A DNA stretch of 32,000 nucleotides, from NCBI RefSeq assembly GCF_000025685.1, contig NC_013966.1, positions 540,001 to 572,000 on the forward strand. The letters run 5' to 3'. The translations under genes were made by a program, and so were the position numbers. This document shows positions 1,792 through 29,615 of the stretch, one piece after another. Position 1 is the stretch's first letter; each line of letters opens with the position of its first letter. The notes under the pieces were generated by a model. The model did no database searches and was not told the origin of the DNA. It worked only from the letters and a program-made list of their open reading frames with translations. The DNA comes from Haloferax volcanii DS2 (GTDB lineage Archaea > Halobacteriota > Halobacteria > Halobacteriales > Haloferacaceae).

Positions 1792-3008
1792 CAGAACACC
1801 CCCATATCGGTCGCGACCGTATAGAGCGTTCGGAGGCCGAGCCAGACGACGACGAGCGTCACCAGCCCGCCGACGACGTTCTGGAGCGTGGAGTTGGCGT
1901 ACGACCCGAGGATGTCGCGGTCGTTCATCACGTAGATGAGGAAGACGGCGACGATGGGAAGCAGGACGCCGTTGGCGACCTGCGCGAAGACGATGGCCTG
2001 CACGGGGCTGTATCCGACCGCGGAGAAGACGATGCCGACGAGCAGAATCGAGCCCCAGACGGCGCGGAACTTCGTGGACTGGAGGTCGGTGTCCCAGCCG
2101 AGCGCCCCCGCCGTCGCGTACGCGCCGGCCAGCGGGGCGGTCGTCGCGCTGGTGAAGCCCGCGGCGAACAGCCCGATGCCGAAGAACACCTTCGCCTGCG
2201 TGCCGACGAGCGGTTCGAGCTGTTCGGCCATCGTGCTCACGTTCTGGATGTTCGTCCCGACGGGGAACGCCGCCGCGGCGGTGACGAGAATCGAGATGGT
2301 GATGAAGCCGCCGAGGACGATAGACAGAACCGTGTCGGCCCGCGACTCGTTCAACTCCTCGGGGCCGGCCCACCGCTCTTGGACGCTCCCGGCGTGGAGA
2401 AAGAGGTTGTAGCCGACGACGGTCGTCCCGATGAGGCCGGTGATGAGGAACGCCGACCCCTCCGGGACGCTCGGGATGAACCCGCGGGCGAGCGCGCCGA
2501 GGTCGGGGCCGATGAGGATGGCGTCGATGAGGAAGGAGACGGCCATGATGGAGACGAGGCCGACCAGCGCTTTCTCGATGAGTTTGTACTTCCCGGACCA
2601 CAGGAGGACGCCGGCGACGAGACCCATCGCGGGCCCCCAGAGGTTGGCGCTGATGCCGGTCAGCCCCTCCAGTCCGGCCGCGCCGCCGAGGATGTTTCCG
2701 GTCTCGTAGGCGGCCGTGCCGACGCCGATGGCGCTCACGACGAGGGCGATACTCAGTCCCGACAGCGCGGGGCTGTCGAACTGCCCCCGGAGCGCCTCCC
2801 CGAGGCCCTCGCGGGAGACGAGGCCGAGTCGGGCGCTCATCTCCTGCAGCACGATAGTGGCGACTATCGAGAAGGCAATCGTCCAGACGAGCGCGTAGCC
2901 GAATCGCGCGCCCGTCACGCTCGCGGTCGTGACCGTTCCGGGACCGATGAACGCGGCGGCGACCATCGCGCCCGGACCGATAGATTTCAGACGTTCGATG
3001 AAGTTCAT
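1791..3008 (-). CDS. mntH: NRAMP-family divalent metal (Mn2+/Fe2+) transporter
   Basis: Starts at an internal Met of ORF 1791..3917. MNFIERLKSIGPGAMVAAAFIGPGTVTTASVTGARFGYALVWTIAF... is the NRAMP N-terminal signature, followed by about 11 hydrophobic segments (405 aa). The upstream 303 codons of the ORF are Arg/Ser/Pro-rich and overlap the RHH gene in another frame, so they are rejected. A TATA-like ATTTAT lies at 3051-3056. Confidence 0.9.
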   Translation of the reverse strand: MNFIERLKSIGPGAMVAAAFIGPGTVTTASVTGARFGYALVWTIAFSIVATIVLQEMSARLGLVSREGLGEALRGQFDSPALSGLSIALVVSAIGVGTAAYETGNILGGAAGLEGLTGISANLWGPAMGLVAGVLLWSGKYKLIEKALVGLVSIMAVSFLIDAILIGPDLGALARGFIPSVPEGSAFLITGLIGTTVVGYNLFLHAGSVQERWAGPEELNESRADTVLSIVLGGFITISILVTAAAAFPVGTNIQNVSTMAEQLEPLVGTQAKVFFGIGLFAAGFTSATTAPLAGAYATAGALGWDTDLQSTKFRAVWGSILLVGIVFSAVGYSPVQAIVFAQVANGVLLPIVAVFLIYVMNDRDILGSYANSTLQNVVGGLVTLVVVWLGLRTLYTVATDMGVF

Positions 3009-3198: not shown

Positions 3199-3744
3199 TC
3201 ACCGGACCTCGGTGAGAAGCACCTTCGAGACGCCCTCTTCGACCTCGATATCGAACGGGGACTGCTCGGTGCTGAGCGCGATGAACCGCGACATAAACCA
3301 CTTGACGGACTCGGTGGGAAAGACGACGTGGAAGGTGTCGCCCTCGGAGGCGCGGACCGTGAGAAAGCCGCAGAACGACAGCCAGTCGAGGAGTTCAGCC
3401 AGCGACTCGAATCGGTCGCGATACTCGTGGGCGTGGAACGCCGCGACCCGGTCGATGGCGTCGAGAAACTCGGGAGCCGGCTCGCCGTCGTCGCCCTCCA
3501 CGTAGTCGAGAAACGTGTGCAGGAAGTCCACGTCGAGAAGGACGTGCTCGCCGCTCGACAGCATCTGGTGGTAGGCTTCGAGGTTCGGCCCGGCGTCGGT
3601 CGTCGCCGCCTCGAAGTTGGCCGCGTAGAAGACGAGCGCCTCGCGGACGAGTTCGCTTTGGGCCTTGTCGGTCCGGCCGGCGAGCCCGTCGAGCGCCGAC
3701 TGAGCGTCCTCGTCGAGCGACACCGTGACGCGATTCGTGACCAT
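3199..3744 (-). CDS. Ribbon-helix-helix (CopG/Arc/MetJ-like) domain protein with a ~130-aa C-terminal domain of unknown function
   Basis: 181-aa acidic ORF. The N-terminus MVTNRVTVSLDEDAQSALDGLAGRTDKAQSELVREALVFYA fits the beta-strand/helix/helix RHH pattern. The C-terminal domain contains FHAHEY and a Cys (SFCGF). It has the same orientation as the NRAMP-hyuA pair and lies directly upstream of it. Confidence 0.75.
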   Translation of the reverse strand: MVTNRVTVSLDEDAQSALDGLAGRTDKAQSELVREALVFYAANFEAATTDAGPNLEAYHQMLSSGEHVLLDVDFLHTFLDYVEGDDGEPAPEFLDAIDRVAAFHAHEYRDRFESLAELLDWLSFCGFLTVRASEGDTFHVVFPTESVKWFMSRFIALSTEQSPFDIEVEEGVSKVLLTEVR

Positions 3745-3847: not shown

Positions 3848-4519
3848 TTAGAAATTGAGACGACGGCGACGGGTCAGTCCGCCGTCGCGGTGCTCGCTCC
3901 CGCCGGCTTCGAAGCACTCCTCTGGCGAGCGGTCGTCGGGAAGGCCGTCGCCGTCGTCCTCGACGTAAAAGCCGTCGTGGGTCCGACCGACGGTCACCGT
4001 TACCTCGGAGCCGCCGTGGTCGACGAACGCGTCGTTGACGTACTCGAAGCGGCCGCGCTCGTCGACGACGTACACCGGGTAGCCGAGCGCTTCGAGAACG
4101 GTTTCGTAGCGCTCCGCCCGGCGGGTCGCCCGGTGTTCGGAGACGCTGTTTTCGATGCGGTTGACGAGCAGTTCGTACTGCTCGGAGGAGGGCTGTTTCT
4201 GGAGGTAGTCGGTGACGCCCGCGGAGATGGCGTCGCTCGCGACTTCCTCGCTCCCCTTGCCGGTAAAGAGGATGAGGGGAAGCGAACCGTGGTCCTCGCG
4301 AACCGTTTCGAGGAGTTCGACCCCGGTCATCGCCGGCATGTCGTAGTCGCTGACCACGCAGTCGATATCGGAATCACGAACGATATCGAACGCGACCCTC
4401 GGGTCCGAGCACGTCGTCACCTCGAACGAAGAGAGCTTTCGAAGGTACGTCTCGCCGAGGTCCAAGAGCGCCGCGTCGTCGTCGGCGTAGACGACGCGAG
4501 GGGATTCCGAGGTCGTCAT
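3848..4519 (-). CDS. Response-regulator receiver protein with remnant PAS and HATPase_c fragments (decayed hybrid kinase)
   Basis: 223 aa. The REC domain is canonical: YADDD, VVSDYDMPAMTG, LILFTGKG, DYLQK. The start of a PAS fold (YPVYVVDERGRFEYVNDAFVDH) then joins directly to a HATPase_c G1-G2 stretch (VTVTVGRTHDGFYVEDDGDGLP...FEAGGSEHRDGG). No HisKA H-box or N-box is present. The ORF ends in AT-rich sequence. A TATA-like TTTATA lies about 30 nt upstream of ATG 4519. Confidence 0.85.
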   Translation of the reverse strand: MTTSESPRVVYADDDAALLDLGETYLRKLSSFEVTTCSDPRVAFDIVRDSDIDCVVSDYDMPAMTGVELLETVREDHGSLPLILFTGKGSEEVASDAISAGVTDYLQKQPSSEQYELLVNRIENSVSEHRATRRAERYETVLEALGYPVYVVDERGRFEYVNDAFVDHGGSEVTVTVGRTHDGFYVEDDGDGLPDDRSPEECFEAGGSEHRDGGLTRRRRLNF

Positions 4520-4687: not shown

Positions 4688-5944
4688 TCAGAACTCGCCG
4701 GCGACGATGTCGGTGACGCGCTCGCGGTCGAACAGCCGTTCAGCCTCGGGAATCTCGGGGTACGACTCGCCGTCGCCGTAGCCGGGCCACGCGCCGAACC
4801 GCTCGGGGAAGAGCTGTTTGGCGGTCATCTCCAACTGGAACAGGTTCATAATCGGGCCCTGCATCCCGTTGCCGGACGGGTAGTACCGGCCGTCGCGGAA
4901 CGCGGGCACCTCGTCCGCGAGGGGGTTCGAAAGCACCTCGTCGCGGTTCGAGCGGAAGGTGTCTCTGAGCGCGGTCCCCCAGTACCGGAGGACCACGTCG
5001 GGCGCGGTCTCGACCATCACCTCGTAATCGTACGAACCGTCCGACCCGGTCTGGGCGTCTGTCGTCGCAAACGCGTTCTGCATCCCGAACGGGCGGAGGT
5101 GCGCCCAGAGGTAGCCGTCCCCCGTGAAGTCGTACGGCCAGAACGTCCCGCCGGTGTCGGCGACGACCGCGAGCGACGGGCGCTCGGACGCCGGTGGGAG
5201 GTCGGCCCGTATCCGGGCGACGAGGTCGTCCCGGAGGGACCTGAACGCCCGGTAGCGCTCTTCCTCTCGGAACACCGCCGCGATGTGGCCGAGGTACTCC
5301 CAGAGCGTATAGTGCTCGTAGCGGTCGCGGCAAGGCTCGGGCGGGTCGGCGTTCGTCCGGCTGTAATAGTTGCCGAACCACGGACCCACGTCGGCCGCGA
5401 TTGACGCCACCTCGCCTTCGGTCCAGTCGAACGAGGGACTCCGGAGCAGACACGGGTCGAGGAAGTGCACGTCGCTGTCCAGTTCGTAAAACAGCTCTCT
5501 GTCGAGGGCGTTCGGGTTCGACGCCGGCGTAACGCGGCCGAGTTTCTCCCACTCGAACTCCACGCCGTCGAGCGCGTCGTAGTAGTAGTCGACCGTGTTG
5601 CCGAACAGCTCCTTGTCGTAACCGATGCCGGTAATGGCGTCGCCGTGGCCGAAGGCGACCGCCGCGTCGGCCGAGACCGGGTAGTAAGTCAGAGCGCGTT
5701 CCGGCACGGCGTCGAACTCGACCTCACCGACCGGGGCCATCGACACCGAGTACGACCCGTCGCTCGTCTCAGTCGCTTCTTCGGTATCCGTCTCAGTCGT
5801 CGAGACGGCGTCAGAAGTAGTGGTCGTCGCGTCGGAACCCCCGCCCGCACAACCCGCGAGGAGTCCCCCGCCGAGGACCGTCCCGCCGAACTTCACGTAG
5901 TCCCGGCGAGTCGGCCCGGACCGACAGTCATCGTTGTCTGCCAT
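4688..5944 (-). CDS. ABC-transporter periplasmic substrate-binding lipoprotein, iron-siderophore/cobalamin type (Peripla_BP_2-like), paralog 1
   Basis: 418 aa. Tat motif (PTRRDYVKFGG), lipobox (LLAGC) and a Thr/Asp/Glu-rich linker. The C-terminal block QGPIMNLFQLEMTAKQLFPERFGAWP is shared with the ORFs at 19953..21179 and 21274..22509. The family call is from memory of haloarchaeal binding proteins and has not been searched. Confidence 0.85.
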   Translation of the reverse strand: MADNDDCRSGPTRRDYVKFGGTVLGGGLLAGCAGGGSDATTTTSDAVSTTETDTEEATETSDGSYSVSMAPVGEVEFDAVPERALTYYPVSADAAVAFGHGDAITGIGYDKELFGNTVDYYYDALDGVEFEWEKLGRVTPASNPNALDRELFYELDSDVHFLDPCLLRSPSFDWTEGEVASIAADVGPWFGNYYSRTNADPPEPCRDRYEHYTLWEYLGHIAAVFREEERYRAFRSLRDDLVARIRADLPPASERPSLAVVADTGGTFWPYDFTGDGYLWAHLRPFGMQNAFATTDAQTGSDGSYDYEVMVETAPDVVLRYWGTALRDTFRSNRDEVLSNPLADEVPAFRDGRYYPSGNGMQGPIMNLFQLEMTAKQLFPERFGAWPGYGDGESYPEIPEAERLFDRERVTDIVAGEF

Positions 5945-5947
5945 ATT

Positions 5948-5997
5948 TTTAGGCCAGCATAAAAAAATAAAACTGCTTCGTTTTAGGTATGCCTAAA
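5948..5997 (-). promoter_or_regulatory. Promoter of binding-protein paralog 1: two TTTAGG-N4-CCTAAA palindromes flanking a TATA-like box
   Basis: TTTAGGccagCATAAA at 5948-5963 lies 3 nt from ATG 5944. The perfect palindrome TTTAGGtatgCCTAAA lies at 5982-5997. The A/T run at 5961-5972 (TTTTATTTTTTT on the minus strand) spans about -17..-28. Confidence 0.7.
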
Positions 5998-6128
5998 TAC
6001 TTCGCTCGCGAGCGAGGAGTCGTGATATTTTAACAATGAGTTGAGACGTATTGAGCGTGTTCCCCGTTACGGATTCCCTCCCCTGCGTCTCGACGGACAG
6101 TATCGAGCGGTTCCTCGCGGCCTTGCTC

Positions 6129-6164
6129 GTCGGACGCGTCGGTCGCGTCGGTCGTGTCAGTCAC
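6129..6164. repeat. 4 x 9-bp imperfect tandem repeat (GTCGGWCGY)
   Basis: The units are gtcggacgc, gtcggtcgc, gtcggtcgt and gtcagtcac, read directly. The repeat spans the stop codon (6161-6163) of the zinc-ribbon membrane protein gene. Confidence 0.8.
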
Positions 6165-6592
6165 GTTCGAGTCCCCCCTTCGGCGGCGTCAACGTCGGCC
6201 TCGGCCCCGGAACCGGGGACCGAACCGAGTTCGGTCGCACACCACTGACAGAACGCAAGCGACGGGTCGGCGGCGCGGCGACAGTTCGGACAGACCCGGC
6301 CGTCGCGGCTCTCGGACCGCTTCGACGCGCGGTTCTGGACGCGCGCAACCACGTACGCGTCGAGAGTGGCGAGGAGGGTAACGACGAACAGCGGCGCGGC
6401 GCTCCAGAAGTCGCCCGCGCCCTGCAAGTACATCGCAACCGCGTCGGGACCGCTCAGAGAGCCGACGCCAAGGAAGACGGCAGCCCACGCGAACGCGCGC
6501 TTCCAACGGCGGAGATACAACTGTCCGAGCCCCGCGACGAACGACGAGAGGAGCGCGGCGAGAAGCGGGCGCTTGACTGCGCGTTTTTTCAT
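6161..6592 (-). CDS. Membrane protein with C-terminal zinc-ribbon domain
   Basis: 143 aa. The N-terminal hydrophobic segments include GLGQLYLRRWKRAFAWAAVFLGVG. The C-terminal CPNC...CQWC pair forms a zinc ribbon. GC3 is high. A TATA-like GCTATACG lies about 27 nt upstream of ATG 6592. Confidence 0.7.
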   Translation of the reverse strand: MKKRAVKRPLLAALLSSFVAGLGQLYLRRWKRAFAWAAVFLGVGSLSGPDAVAMYLQGAGDFWSAAPLFVVTLLATLDAYVVARVQNRASKRSESRDGRVCPNCRRAADPSLAFCQWCATELGSVPGSGAEADVDAAEGGTRT

Positions 6593-10261: not shown

Positions 10262-10849
10262 TCAGCGCCGGGCGATGAGGTCGCGCGAGATGTCGGCGCG
10301 CTCGTAGACGGCTCCGTCGTGCGCGTCGGCGAACGCCTCGGCGTCGCCGTCGTCGGAAAAGGGGACGAAGTCGGGACCCATCGACCCGTTGACATCGGTT
10401 CCGACGACGTAGACGAGGTCGTCCATCGGCGCGAACGCGTCGGCGTCGAGGTGCGCGGAGATGAACGTCTGGCCGCCGTCGTCGAACAGGTCGTACTCGA
10501 CAGTGCTGTAATCCGTGAGGTAGCCGCCGGCGCGATTCCACCCGTCGTCCTCGCGGTCGAGCGCGTAGGAGAACGTCTCCCAGGCGCTACAAAACCGCGC
10601 CGGGTTGTCGTGACCCTCGGGGCTGTGGTCTGCGTAGAACAGTTGCCCGGCGGGGCCGGGGTGCTGGTCGATGACCATCCCGCAGGCGTCGCACTGCTCG
10701 CCGCCGGTCAGTGCGACTGCCTCGGGAGCGTCGCCACCGCCGTCGGTTCCGAGACCGCCCAGACACCCTGCGGTGGCGGCGACGCCCGCGACACCGACGG
10801 CAGACAACACGGTTCGACGAGCGACGGTTCGGTCGCAGTCGTGGCACAT
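10262..10849 (-). CDS. nosL: NosL-like copper-chaperone lipoprotein
   Basis: Tat signal and lipobox (ARRTVLSAVGVAGVAATAGC), then the NosL-type CDACGMVI motif and a FCS segment. ATG 10849 is preferred over the TTG at 10876. Confidence 0.8.
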   Translation of the reverse strand: MCHDCDRTVARRTVLSAVGVAGVAATAGCLGGLGTDGGGDAPEAVALTGGEQCDACGMVIDQHPGPAGQLFYADHSPEGHDNPARFCSAWETFSYALDREDDGWNRAGGYLTDYSTVEYDLFDDGGQTFISAHLDADAFAPMDDLVYVVGTDVNGSMGPDFVPFSDDGDAEAFADAHDGAVYERADISRDLIARR

Positions 10850-11017
10850 ACGCCAAGCTAGTTGGGGGGTGCTCAAATGGTGATTGGTGCGGAAAACGAA
10901 CCAAGCGCCGGACGTGTGGTCAGCCCGTCACGTTCCGTCCGAGTCGATGACGCCGTGGCTCGGCACAGTCGCCACGGGGTCCGCGGTCCGCGCCCCCGGC
11001 GACGCGTCGCGCGTACG

Positions 11018-19952: not shown

Positions 19953-21179
19953 TCAGTCGCCGGTGACGATGCCGGCGACGCGCTCGCGGTCGAACAACCG
20001 CTCGCCCTCGGGAATCACGGGATACGCACCGCCGTCGTACGCCGGCCACGCGCCGAAGCGGTCGGGGTAGAGCTGTTTCGCCGTCATCTCGGTCTGGAAC
20101 AGGTTCATAATCGGCCCCTGCACCGGGGTTCCCGAGGGGTAGACGCGGTCGTTTCGGACCGCGCTGAGTTCGCCCCCGACGGGGTGGTTTTCGAGGGTCT
20201 CGCGAATCGACGCCACGTCGTAGTACGAGTCGATACCGTAGCTGTGGAGCAGCACGTCGGGGTCGATTTCGAGCATCGCCTCGAAGTCGTAGGAGGTCTC
20301 GAACGTCACGTCGCCGGCCGCGAACGCGTCGGTGACGCCGAGCGGGCGGATGTGCGAGGTCGCGAAGCCGGGTGCGTCGATTTTCGTCGGATAGAACGCC
20401 TCGTCCATGTAGATGACGACCCCGACGCTCGGTCGCTCCGACTCGGGGGGGAGGTCCGACCGAATCGTGTCGAGGAGGTCGCTGTGGACCGCTTCGAGCG
20501 CCGCGTAGCGGTCTTCCTCCCGGAACACCTGCCCGACGTTCTCGACGATTTCCCAGAGCGTGTAGTACTGGTAGTCGTCGGCGTACGGCTCTGGCGGCCG
20601 GGCGTGGGTACGGCTGTAAGCGTTACCGAACCACGGCGCGACCTGCTCGCGAATCTCCTCGACGTCCGACTGGTCCCAGCCGTCGAAGCTGGCCACGAGC
20701 GCCGGGTCGACGAGGTGGAGGTCGGAGTCGAGTTCGTAGACGAGTTCCTTGTCGATGTTGACGCTCCCCGACCCCGAGTTGAGCTGCGCGAGGTCGCTCC
20801 GGTCGAACGAGACGCCGTCGAGGCGCTCGTAGTAGGCGTCGAGCGTCCGGCCGCCGGCGTCGCTGTCGAAGCCGAGGGAGTTCACCGCGTCGCCGTGGCC
20901 GAAGGCGACCGCGGCGTCGGCGTAGACGAGGTTGTACACCATCACATTCTCCGGGACCGACTCGAACGTCACGTCGCCGGCCGGCGACATCGACACCGTG
21001 TAGCCGGCGGCGTCGCCGTCGGCGGCCGTCGTCGCGGCCGTCTCGGTCGCATCCGTCGACGACTCCGCGTCGTTCTGTCCGGCACAGCCGGCTAACAGAC
21101 CGCCCGCGAGCAGCGCGCCGCCGCCCTTGAGGCACGCGCGGCGCGTGGGCGTCGCCCGGTCGGTGAGGTCCTGATCCAT
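19953..21179 (-). CDS. ABC-transporter periplasmic substrate-binding lipoprotein (Peripla_BP_2-like), paralog 2
   Basis: Starts at the internal Met of ORF 19953..21272: MDQDLTDRATPTRRACLKGGGALLAGGLLAGCAG (Tat signal plus lipobox). It aligns with paralogs 1 and 3 along its full length. The upstream 31 codons are AT-rich promoter sequence. Confidence 0.88.
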   Translation of the reverse strand: MDQDLTDRATPTRRACLKGGGALLAGGLLAGCAGQNDAESSTDATETAATTAADGDAAGYTVSMSPAGDVTFESVPENVMVYNLVYADAAVAFGHGDAVNSLGFDSDAGGRTLDAYYERLDGVSFDRSDLAQLNSGSGSVNIDKELVYELDSDLHLVDPALVASFDGWDQSDVEEIREQVAPWFGNAYSRTHARPPEPYADDYQYYTLWEIVENVGQVFREEDRYAALEAVHSDLLDTIRSDLPPESERPSVGVVIYMDEAFYPTKIDAPGFATSHIRPLGVTDAFAAGDVTFETSYDFEAMLEIDPDVLLHSYGIDSYYDVASIRETLENHPVGGELSAVRNDRVYPSGTPVQGPIMNLFQTEMTAKQLYPDRFGAWPAYDGGAYPVIPEGERLFDRERVAGIVTGD

Positions 21180-21182
21180 GCG

Positions 21183-21267
21183 TTTGGGCAATCCTAAACG
21201 GATAAATCCGTTTCGGAGTTTCGGCGTGCCTAAATCGGTACGTCTATATGTATTAGGTCGCCCTAAA
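21183..21267. promoter_or_regulatory. Divergent promoter with three TTTAGG-N4-CCTAAA palindromes and two TATA-like boxes
   Basis: TTTGGGcaatCCTAAA at 21183-21198, TTTCGGcgtgCCTAAA at 21219-21234 and ATTAGGtcgcCCTAAA at 21252-21267. AAACGGataaatCCGTTT (21196-21213) wraps the minus-gene TATA. TATATGTATTA (21245-21255) serves the plus gene. Confidence 0.75.
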
Positions 21268-21273
21268 AGCACG

Positions 21274-22509
21274 ATGACAGACAGCGACGGACCAACGCGC
21301 AGGAAGTTCTTGACCTACGGCGGTTCGGTCGCCGCCGGCGGATTGCTCGCCGGCTGTACCGGTTCGTCCGAGTCGGACGCGACGGCGACGGACGCGGCCG
21401 CGACGGATACCACCGCGACCGCCGACGCGACGGCGACGAGCGAGTCGACCGCGGAGTCGACGGCCGACGGCAGTTCGTACACGGTGTCGATGGCACCGAT
21501 GGGCGACGTGACGTTCGAGGGCGTCCCCGAGAGCATCTTCACGCGGCTAACCCACCACGCGGGGATGGCGTTCGCGCTCGGCCACGGCGACGCCGTCAAC
21601 GCGATGCACGCCCCCGACTACTACGACGCGCTGTGGAACCAGTTCACGCCGCGTCTCCCCGGCGTCGAACTCGACTGGACCGGCCTGTACTCGTCGTGGG
21701 AGCCGTCGAAAGAGCGGCTCTACGAACTCGACAGCGACGTGCATCTGGCCGACCCCGCCAGCGTCTCCGCGCTCGGCAGTTGGAGTCAGGCCGACCTCGA
21801 CGAAATCGAGGAGAACATCAGTCCGTGGTTCGGCAACAGCTTCAGCGCGCGGCACCAAGCGCCGCCGACCGAGTGGGTCGACGCCTACGAATACTACGGC
21901 CTCTGGGAGATATTCGCCAAGGTCGCACAGGTGCTCCAAGCGGAGGCGAAGTACGAGGCGCTCGCCGCGGTCCACGAGGAACTGCTCGCGACGATTGCGG
22001 CGGACCTCCCCGCGGAAGAAGACCGGCCGACCGCCGTGCTTCTCGGCCCGAGCGACCTGGAGTCCATCTACGCCTACAACCTGAGCACGCCCGGATTCCT
22101 GACCGCCCACACCCGCCCGCTGAAGCCGGTCAGCGCGTTCGGCGACGACGTCGAGTCCGGGTCGACCGTCGACTTCGAAACGCTCCTCGAAGCCGACCCC
22201 GACGTGATTCTCACGCTCGGCGGGATGCACCCGAACACGAGCATGCCCGACATCCGGACGGGATTCCAGGACGACCCCGTCGGAGCCGAGATTTCGGCCG
22301 TGAAGAACGACCGCATCTACGCGCAGGGCGGCCGCTACCAGGGACCGATACTCAATCTGTTCCAGTTGGAGATGACCGCGAAACAGCTCTCCCCCGACCG
22401 CTTCGGCGCGTGGCCCCAGTACAGCGAGGGACCGTACCCCGAGATTCCCGAGGAGGAACAGCTGTTCGACCGGCAGCGCGTCGCCGACATCATCAACGGG
22501 AACCTCTGA
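21274..22509 (+). CDS. ABC-transporter periplasmic substrate-binding lipoprotein (Peripla_BP_2-like), paralog 3
   Basis: Starts at the internal Met of ORF 21178..22509: MTDSDGPTRRKFLTYGGSVAAGGLLAGCTG (Tat signal plus lipobox). A Thr/Ala/Asp linker follows, and it carries the conserved C-terminal block QGPILNLFQLEMTAKQLSPDRFGAWP. Confidence 0.88.
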   Translation: MTDSDGPTRRKFLTYGGSVAAGGLLAGCTGSSESDATATDAAATDTTATADATATSESTAESTADGSSYTVSMAPMGDVTFEGVPESIFTRLTHHAGMAFALGHGDAVNAMHAPDYYDALWNQFTPRLPGVELDWTGLYSSWEPSKERLYELDSDVHLADPASVSALGSWSQADLDEIEENISPWFGNSFSARHQAPPTEWVDAYEYYGLWEIFAKVAQVLQAEAKYEALAAVHEELLATIAADLPAEEDRPTAVLLGPSDLESIYAYNLSTPGFLTAHTRPLKPVSAFGDDVESGSTVDFETLLEADPDVILTLGGMHPNTSMPDIRTGFQDDPVGAEISAVKNDRIYAQGGRYQGPILNLFQLEMTAKQLSPDRFGAWPQYSEGPYPEIPEEEQLFDRQRVADIINGNL

Positions 22510-29437: not shown

Positions 29438-29615
29438 TGTCGTTTAGGGCGGTTTAGAAACACATTTACAAACCAAGTACCCAATGTCGGGTTCTTTGAA
29501 TAAACTGTATATTGTTTATAAGACGATCAATCCCTCGGGGGAACCGCGACGCCGACAACCGGAACCGTCGTTCCGCAATCGTAACCCATTGGTAGCAGGT
29601 CGGTGTACCGTGGGT

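Follow-up and report, generated by a model that had tools for sequence, protein, structure and literature searches.

Paired palindromes upstream of an orphan binding-protein gene are probably operators of a TroR-type iron regulator in haloarchaea

Upstream of SBP1, a gene for a predicted binding protein on the minus strand, two palindromes lie close together in front of the start codon, and similar palindromes occupy the space between two divergent paralogs, SBP2 and SBP3, 15 kb away in the window (by which we mean the whole 32,000-nt stretch of DNA that was analysed). What binds to these palindromes, and do they place the three genes under common control? We conclude, with a probability that we put at roughly 0.87, that the SBP1 palindromes are operators (iron boxes) of the haloarchaeal DtxR-family iron regulator, which in Hfx. 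volcanii is TroR. The system is already described: the regulator, its motif, the tandem arrangement and a neighbouring target locus have all been published.

We found that the SBP2 and SBP3 proteins are 51% and 42% identical to SBP1, that all three match PF01497, and that each has a Tat (twin-arginine) motif followed by a lipobox, which agrees with the first-pass annotation of this DNA, where the genes had been called paralogs. All three show remote homology to siderophore binding proteins of the Fe3+-hydroxamate and FeuA types, and no permease or ATPase gene is adjacent to any of them. In Hfx. volcanii, 11 paralogous binding proteins stand against only one ATPase and two permeases (PMC11349517), and we attribute the orphan state of the binding-protein genes to this sharing of one ATPase and two permeases among 11 binding proteins.

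The window is high-GC haloarchaeal DNA that shares ~97% identity with plasmids of Haloferax alexandrinus and Haloferax lucentense, and it is syntenic with the segment of Hfx. volcanii pHV4 from HVO_A0541 to HVO_A0563. From this synteny, in which NosL corresponds to HVO_A0549, SBP1 is probably HVO_A0541, a gene annotated as 'probable substrate iron-III' (PMC9051519), and the divergent pair beside hutH corresponds to HVO_A0557 and HVO_A0558. The neighbours in the window are an Nramp transporter, a CopG-type regulator, a TetR regulator, NosL, CobQ, the hutHIGU operon and an HTH_10 regulator that matches the Pfam family named after HVO_A0563. None of the scanned window ORFs matched PF01325 (DtxR family); TroR of Hfx. 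volcanii is encoded on the chromosome, as HVO_0863 (PMC11349517).

Table 1. Positions of the three genes, the five boxes and the predicted core promoter elements of SBP1 (numbering of the window)
Feature	Position	Strand	Description
SBP1	4688-5944	-	Orphan Tat-lipoprotein ABC substrate-binding protein (Peripla_BP_2); probably HVO_A0541
SBP1 proximal iron box	5948-5963	.	TroR-type (DtxR-family); TTTAGGccagCATAAA; 25.3 bits
SBP1 TATA box (predicted)	5967-5972	-	TTTTAT; -28 to -23; read from the sequence
SBP1 BRE (predicted)	5976-5980	-	CGAAG; -36 to -32; likewise
SBP1 distal iron box	5982-5997	.	TroR-type; perfect palindrome TTTAGGtatgCCTAAA; 30.1 bits, window maximum
SBP2	19953-21179	-	HVO_A0557 equivalent; paralog
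SBP2 proximal box	21183-21198	.	TTTGGGcaatCCTAAA; 3 nt from ATG 21179 (-); 11.1 bits
Central box	21219-21234	.	TTTCGGcgtgCCTAAA; distal box common to both divergent promoters; 21.8 bits
SBP3 proximal box	21252-21267	.	ATTAGGtcgcCCTAAA; 6 nt from ATG 21274 (+); 22.2 bits
SBP3	21274-22509	+	HVO_A0558 equivalent, adjoins hutH; paralog

SBP1 begins with an ATG at 5944-5942 on the minus strand, and the coding strand of its promoter reads tatTTAGGCATACCTAAAaCGAAGcagTTTTATtttTTTATGCTGGCCTAAAaatATG. The first-pass annotation had put a proximal site 3 nt from this start codon and a perfect distal palindrome at -38 to -53, and both sets of coordinates are borne out by the sequence. The proximal box (TTTAGGCCAGCATAAA) is separated from the ATG by the three nucleotides 5945-5947, spans -19 to -4, has one mismatch to TTTAGGN4CCTAAA and overlaps an A/T run at 5960-5972. 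The distal box (TTTAGGTATGCCTAAA) spans -53 to -38, lies 38 nt 5' of the ATG and stops 1 nt short of the BRE-like CGAAG; the start-to-start spacing of the two boxes is 34 bp. PMC4983044 gives CGAAA for the BRE and TTWT for the TATA box as the haloarchaeal consensus. The position of the predicted SBP1 TATA box agrees with this TTWT and with a TtT column in the family consensus described below, and the predicted BRE corresponds to a cGAAa column in the same consensus. Because the TATA box, with its centre at ~-26, stands at the canonical archaeal distance to the transcription start, the SBP1 transcript is likely to be leaderless, with its start at or beside the A of the ATG. The study behind the CGAAA and TTWT consensus is said to have found most Hfx. 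volcanii transcripts leaderless. HVO_A0541, HVO_A0557 and HVO_A0558 are absent from the text dRNA-seq supplements of Babski et al.

At the 21.2-kb locus, three boxes at 21183-21267 separate the divergent paralogs SBP2 and SBP3, and their start-to-start spacing is 36 bp (21183 to 21219) and 33 bp (21219 to 21252). The spacings given earlier for the two loci (34 bp against 33 and 36 bp) and the gaps of 3, 3 and 6 nt between the proximal box and the ATG (ATGs at 5944 on the minus strand, 21179 on the minus strand and 21274 on the plus strand) came out exactly the same when we recomputed them. The same two-site layout had been read at all three genes, and in our alignment the three promoters are indeed collinear: distal box, BRE (CGAAG or CGAAA), TATA box (TTTTAT, ATTTAT or TATATG), proximal box and ATG. 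The three-box layout of the 21.2-kb locus is kept in other Haloferax (L026, L028, L061, L062).

The SBP2 side of this locus has features of its own. Its box at 21183-21198 is the weakest of the five in the window (11.1 bits), and in the SBP2 orthologs of Haloferax prahovense, Haloferax sp. Q22 and Haloferax marisrubri (L060, L064 and L082, respectively) the proximal box has decayed by more than two mismatches, for example to GTCTGGGAGTGGCTAAA, with both upstream boxes retained. The SBP2 core promoter (21192-21217) is a 12/2/12 inverted repeat, TCCTAAACGGAT-AA-ATCCGTTTCGGA, which has the TATA box at its centre and connects the inner half-sites of two boxes.

To assess how often such boxes would occur by chance, we compared the window with dinucleotide shuffles. 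With up to two mismatches to TTTAGGN4CCTAAA, we found five matches as compared to 0.04 expected, and each of the five actually has at most one mismatch; a chance origin of the five boxes is excluded. Allowing three mismatches added one weak site only, at 29443-29458 upstream of an MFS gene, and this site, which scored 0.3 bits, was rejected as chance. When we scored the window with a position weight matrix trained solely on sites from genera other than Haloferax, the five boxes took the five highest scores (Table 1) and the next score was 0.3 bits. The two boxes of SBP1 are the strongest in the window by this matrix, and their scores fall within or above the interquartile range of the training sites from other genera.

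To see whether the layout extends beyond this window, we scanned one genome per species and obtained 80 loci with relatives of SBP1, SBP2 and SBP3 from more than 20 haloarchaeal genera; start codons were placed by the Tat motif, the three window genes were added, and 81 promoters were compared. At least one box (up to two mismatches) was present within 150 nt of the ATG in 73 of the 81 promoters, and the nearest box ended 2-7 nt before the ATG, mostly 3 or 4 nt, in 65 of the 81. Two or more boxes were found in 45 promoters, with a spacing of 36 bp in 30 and of 33-37 bp in 41 of these 45; in Haladaptatus-type promoters the boxes are 29-30 bp apart. Among the eight promoters that carry no box, at least six belong to second genes of tandem binding-protein pairs, where the upstream DNA is the 3' end of the paralog, and several of these box-less loci do carry boxes farther upstream, roughly where one would expect the first gene's promoter to be. 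A spacing of 33-37 bp amounts to ~3.1-3.5 helical turns and so not to a whole number of them; it seems likelier to be set by how long the BRE-TATA core is than by helical phasing.

From this collection we derived a consensus set of 46 promoters that are mutually less than 80% identical. In this set the proximal box reaches near-maximal information and reads TTTAGGc..GCCTAAA; upstream of it are the TATA (TtT) and BRE (cGAAa) columns, and beyond them a weaker distal box. In the orthologs of SBP1 itself, the proximal box is kept in all Haloferax and is perfect in H. alexandrinus and H. lucentense. The window shares the distal box of SBP1 with H. alexandrinus, H. lucentense and Haloferax sp. Q22 only, and this box is absent from the orthologs of H. 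gibbonsii, H. denitrificans, H. marisrubri and H. massiliensis, which have the proximal box only. Thus, the two-site layout is common in the family and is not obligatory at SBP1. The first-pass annotation had argued for a regulator with contacts on both sides of the TATA box; in the family this reading is supported, with BRE and TATA between the boxes, and at SBP1 the distal box is found only in the window and its closest relatives.

The proximal box of SBP1 differs from its nearest relatives at one position. In the window a C-to-A substitution in the half-site at 5958-5963 gives CATAAA, as compared to CCTAAA in H. alexandrinus and H. lucentense (L001 at 4389-4394, and L086). Three independent assemblies that encode an identical SBP1 protein have an identical promoter, so CATAAA is not a sequencing error. 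The exact protein is indexed in 179 blocks of a collection of public assemblies, and the three contigs come from assemblies of sequencing runs; circumstantially, this points to a laboratory strain that has been sequenced many times, probably Hfx. volcanii itself. The substituted position is nearly invariant across genera, so the proximal site of SBP1 has probably lost strength, and more of the load may fall to the perfect distal site. The substitution also creates a second TATA-like element, TTTATG, on the coding strand.

We also looked at boxes elsewhere in the compared loci. These extra boxes are mostly 3-4 or 36-40 nt from an ATG, and they precede more binding-protein paralogs, FAD oxidoreductases and a gene for a DtxR-family regulator; several 'ORFs' beside such boxes proved to be Arg/Ser-rich antisense artefacts, and we set them aside. 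As boxes precede both iron genes and a DtxR gene, the box is tied to iron and to the DtxR family independently of the published papers.

In four Halorubrum loci (L011, L015, L019, L036), a 146-aa DtxR-family gene (PF01325/PF02742) lies ~1.8-2.0 kb upstream of the binding-protein gene and has a perfect iron box that ends 3 nt before its own ATG. This suggests that the Halorubrum gene is auto- or cross-regulated, comparable to the repression of idr by TroR in Hfx. volcanii. In three further loci, L009 (+2579 from the match start), L016 (-995) and L070 (-972), a box stands 3-4 nt before the ATG of a gene for a FAD-dependent pyridine-nucleotide-disulphide oxidoreductase of ~300 aa. These oxidoreductases could be ferric-siderophore reductases of the same regulon.

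The identity of the regulator comes from published work on Hfx. volcanii. The motif derived from TroR ChIP-seq is TTTAGGC-NNN-CCTAAAANAN; of 36 peaks in total, 32 intergenic ones served for motif discovery, and every one of these contained it (PMC10783522; Martinez Pastor et al., NAR 2024). When we compared the SBP1 boxes with this motif, TTTAGGC-NNN-CCTAAA(ANAN), we found that the distal box is a perfect match and that the proximal box has a single mismatch. Many TroR peaks contain several copies of the motif, chiefly at promoters of siderophore and iron ABC transporters (PMC10783522), and SBP1, as a Peripla_BP_2 Tat-lipoprotein gene, is likewise of this kind. The promoter P_hvo_B0047 has two tandem boxes ~30 bp apart, and one of them, whichever it is, is enough for repression by iron, so that only mutation of both boxes or deletion of troR abolishes it (PMC10783522); the corresponding distances in the window are 34, 36 and 33 bp. 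In Figure 4A of the same paper, a TroR ChIP peak is found at hvo_A0557-8 beside hutH, which is the 21.2-kb locus. One point differs: the abstract of PMC10783522 summarises the motif as lying ~100 nt upstream of start codons, which disagrees with the positions of the SBP1 boxes 3 and 38 nt upstream of the ATG (-19 to -4 and -53 to -38). We considered two of the compared loci (L014 and L018) as orthologs of P_hvo_B0047 and rejected them, as hutH and hutI follow downstream; they are instead orthologs of the HVO_A0558-type gene.

Published expression data point indirectly in the same direction. HVO_A0557 is 7-fold up in iron starvation, and a 'DtxR motif I' precedes each up-regulated fhuD/phuD gene or operon (PMC11349517). 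According to the same paper, which cites Leyn & Rodionov (J Bacteriol 2015), a ferR signal had been predicted for all fhu genes and operons. We liken this FerR/DtxR motif I, a predicted DtxR-family signal at haloarchaeal fhu/phu genes, to the SBP1 boxes by its description in the citing paper. In the transcriptome of an unrelated mutant, HVO_A0541 goes down along with iucA, bdb, dat and hcpE (PMC9051519), and this co-variation is consistent with co-regulation. A literature search with the two half-site strings returned telomere papers only, and PMC5737653 gave no description of a motif. Taken together, these data suggest that TroR would bind at the SBP1 promoter and that SBP1 (probably HVO_A0541) is very likely a member of the TroR regulon. 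They also support the earlier proposal that the three genes form one regulon, as the box is the TroR motif and the layout recurs in many haloarchaeal genera.

Could a different DtxR paralog (Idr or SirR), or several paralogs with overlapping binding, occupy the boxes, perhaps in response to another metal such as manganese? We consider this improbable, as the Hfx. volcanii motif was derived from TroR ChIP-seq peaks, derepression was seen in a troR mutant, and SirR is reported on its own promoter and on mntH instead (PMC10783522). The idea draws on the one to six DtxR paralogs encoded by haloarchaea (PMC10783522), on a report that Idr1 of Hbt. salinarum controls an ortholog of this binding-protein family (PMC11349517), and on the Halorubrum DtxR-family gene near a binding-protein gene, where the DtxR-family gene itself has this box at 3 nt from its ATG.

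The half-sites might also be variant basal elements instead of operators, for example an alternative TATA box for a particular TBP/TFB pair. TroR ChIP-seq and the mutagenesis of boxes explain them (PMC10783522), and this makes a basal role very improbable in spite of three points in its favour: the TTTAGG/CCTAAA half-sites are A/T-rich and lie inside the core promoter, the mutated half-site of the window (TTTATG) is TATA-like, and a tfb paralog is down in iron starvation (PMC11349517). The strict 7-2-7 inverted repeat with near-maximal information does not fit a basal element, a separate BRE and TATA box are present between the boxes, and one box is found downstream of the TATA box, at -20 to -4. 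To our knowledge, there is no basal element of such a kind at -20 to -4.

That the three promoters resemble one another merely because they were copied along with the genes, with sites that have no current function, is hardly credible and is already contradicted by the pattern of conservation: the genes are paralogous and their promoters collinear, but the half-sites are near-invariant among proteins that are 42-51% identical, the 4-nt spacers and the DNA between the boxes differ, and boxes are found at the same distance from the ATG in more than 20 genera, also before unrelated genes.

With the boxes read as operators of a TroR-type regulator, repression at SBP1 could work as follows. When iron is sufficient, a metal-loaded dimer of the regulator would sit on each 16-bp 7-2-7 inverted repeat (TTTAGGC-NN-GCCTAAA), which is the same logic of repression under iron-replete conditions as in the published TroR regulon. 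The dimer on the proximal box would cover the DNA that RNA polymerase needs in the stretch separating the TATA box from the start, and recruitment or promoter opening would be blocked. The dimer on the distal box (-53 to -38), which abuts the upstream edge of the BRE, may hinder TFB, or it may reinforce repression or make it redundant, as at P_hvo_B0047. In iron starvation the repressor would leave and SBP1 would be transcribed. The same regulator would control the divergent SBP2 and SBP3, which would place the three genes in one iron regulon.

We infer this steric mode of repression by analogy with archaeal repressors such as MDR1. MDR1 of Archaeoglobus fulgidus, the subject of work by Bell et al. 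in 1999, is reportedly a DtxR-family repressor that depends on metal and has several operators around the start site of an ABC transporter operon, and it is said to block the recruitment of RNA polymerase without displacing TBP/TFB. This mechanism is the one that we would propose for the proximal box of SBP1. MDR1 differs in its operator sequence and its organism, and an extra box upstream of the BRE is not known from the MDR1 layout.

The operator of bacterial DtxR/IdeR, a 19-bp iron box with the consensus TTAGGTTAGCCTAACCTAA, belongs to the same family of regulators. We found that the haloarchaeal core TTAGG-N4-CCTAA is identical to the first 14 nt of this consensus, and TTTAGGTTAGCCTAAA at locus L003 is an example of the shared core. 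In contrast to the bacterial 19-bp element, the window has a 16-bp 7-2-7 palindrome, and the promoter on which it acts is of the archaeal BRE/TATA kind. The 19-mer TTAGGTTAGCCTAACCTAA had no match in the window with up to three mismatches, and with this result and the 16-bp 7-2-7 repeat we rejected the SBP1 boxes as a classical bacterial DtxR/IdeR operator. A scan for bacterial sigma-70 promoters and terminators was uninformative for an archaeon.

For the biology of iron regulation these results add little; the mildly new point is the strict bracket around BRE and TATA at near-fixed distances from the start codon across Halobacteria. We suggest only tentatively, and hold it to be rather doubtful, that this fixed arrangement is a conserved design of Halobacteria that published work has left undescribed. 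The design may consist of one box ending 3-4 nt in front of a leaderless ATG and of another that lies 33-37 bp upstream and abuts the BRE. If this were true, two repressor dimers would bracket the complex of TBP/TFB with DNA, and cooperative or two-step control would be possible, for example with the distal dimer tuning access of TFB and the proximal dimer blocking polymerase. The case also illustrates that a reading of raw sequence without tools can recover a genuine regulon signal.

NosL (HVO_A0549) is 13-fold up in iron starvation in Hfx. volcanii (PMC11349517). Upstream of NosL in the window (10262-10876, minus strand) we found no iron box above background, so any iron response of this gene would be indirect or would go through another regulator. 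Upstream of the Nramp gene (ATG at 3008, minus strand) there are three tandem 10-bp units, cTTCATACTC/gTTCATACTC/cTTCGTACGC, at 3120-3091, and an inverted repeat, TATCAA-N7-TTGATA (3052-3034, minus strand), overlaps the likely TATA box ATTTAT (3056-3051) of this gene. Either of the two could serve as operator, for a manganese regulator or for the CopG-type protein whose gene lies just upstream (3199-3744); we considered a manganese regulator because SirR is reported on the mntH promoter in Hfx. volcanii.

Two further repeats lie upstream of the SBP1 boxes. At 6002-6015, 5 nt upstream of the distal box, there is a 14-bp GC-rich perfect palindrome, TCGCTCGCGAGCGA, that H. alexandrinus and H. lucentense also have. 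It may act as a terminator-like hairpin of the DUF7575 zinc-ribbon gene that lies upstream (6161-6592, minus strand), or else be another binding site. Just 3' of the stop codon of the DUF7575 gene (6161-6163), ~four units of a 9-bp tandem repeat (CGTCGGACG/CGTCGGTCG) occupy 6128-6163.
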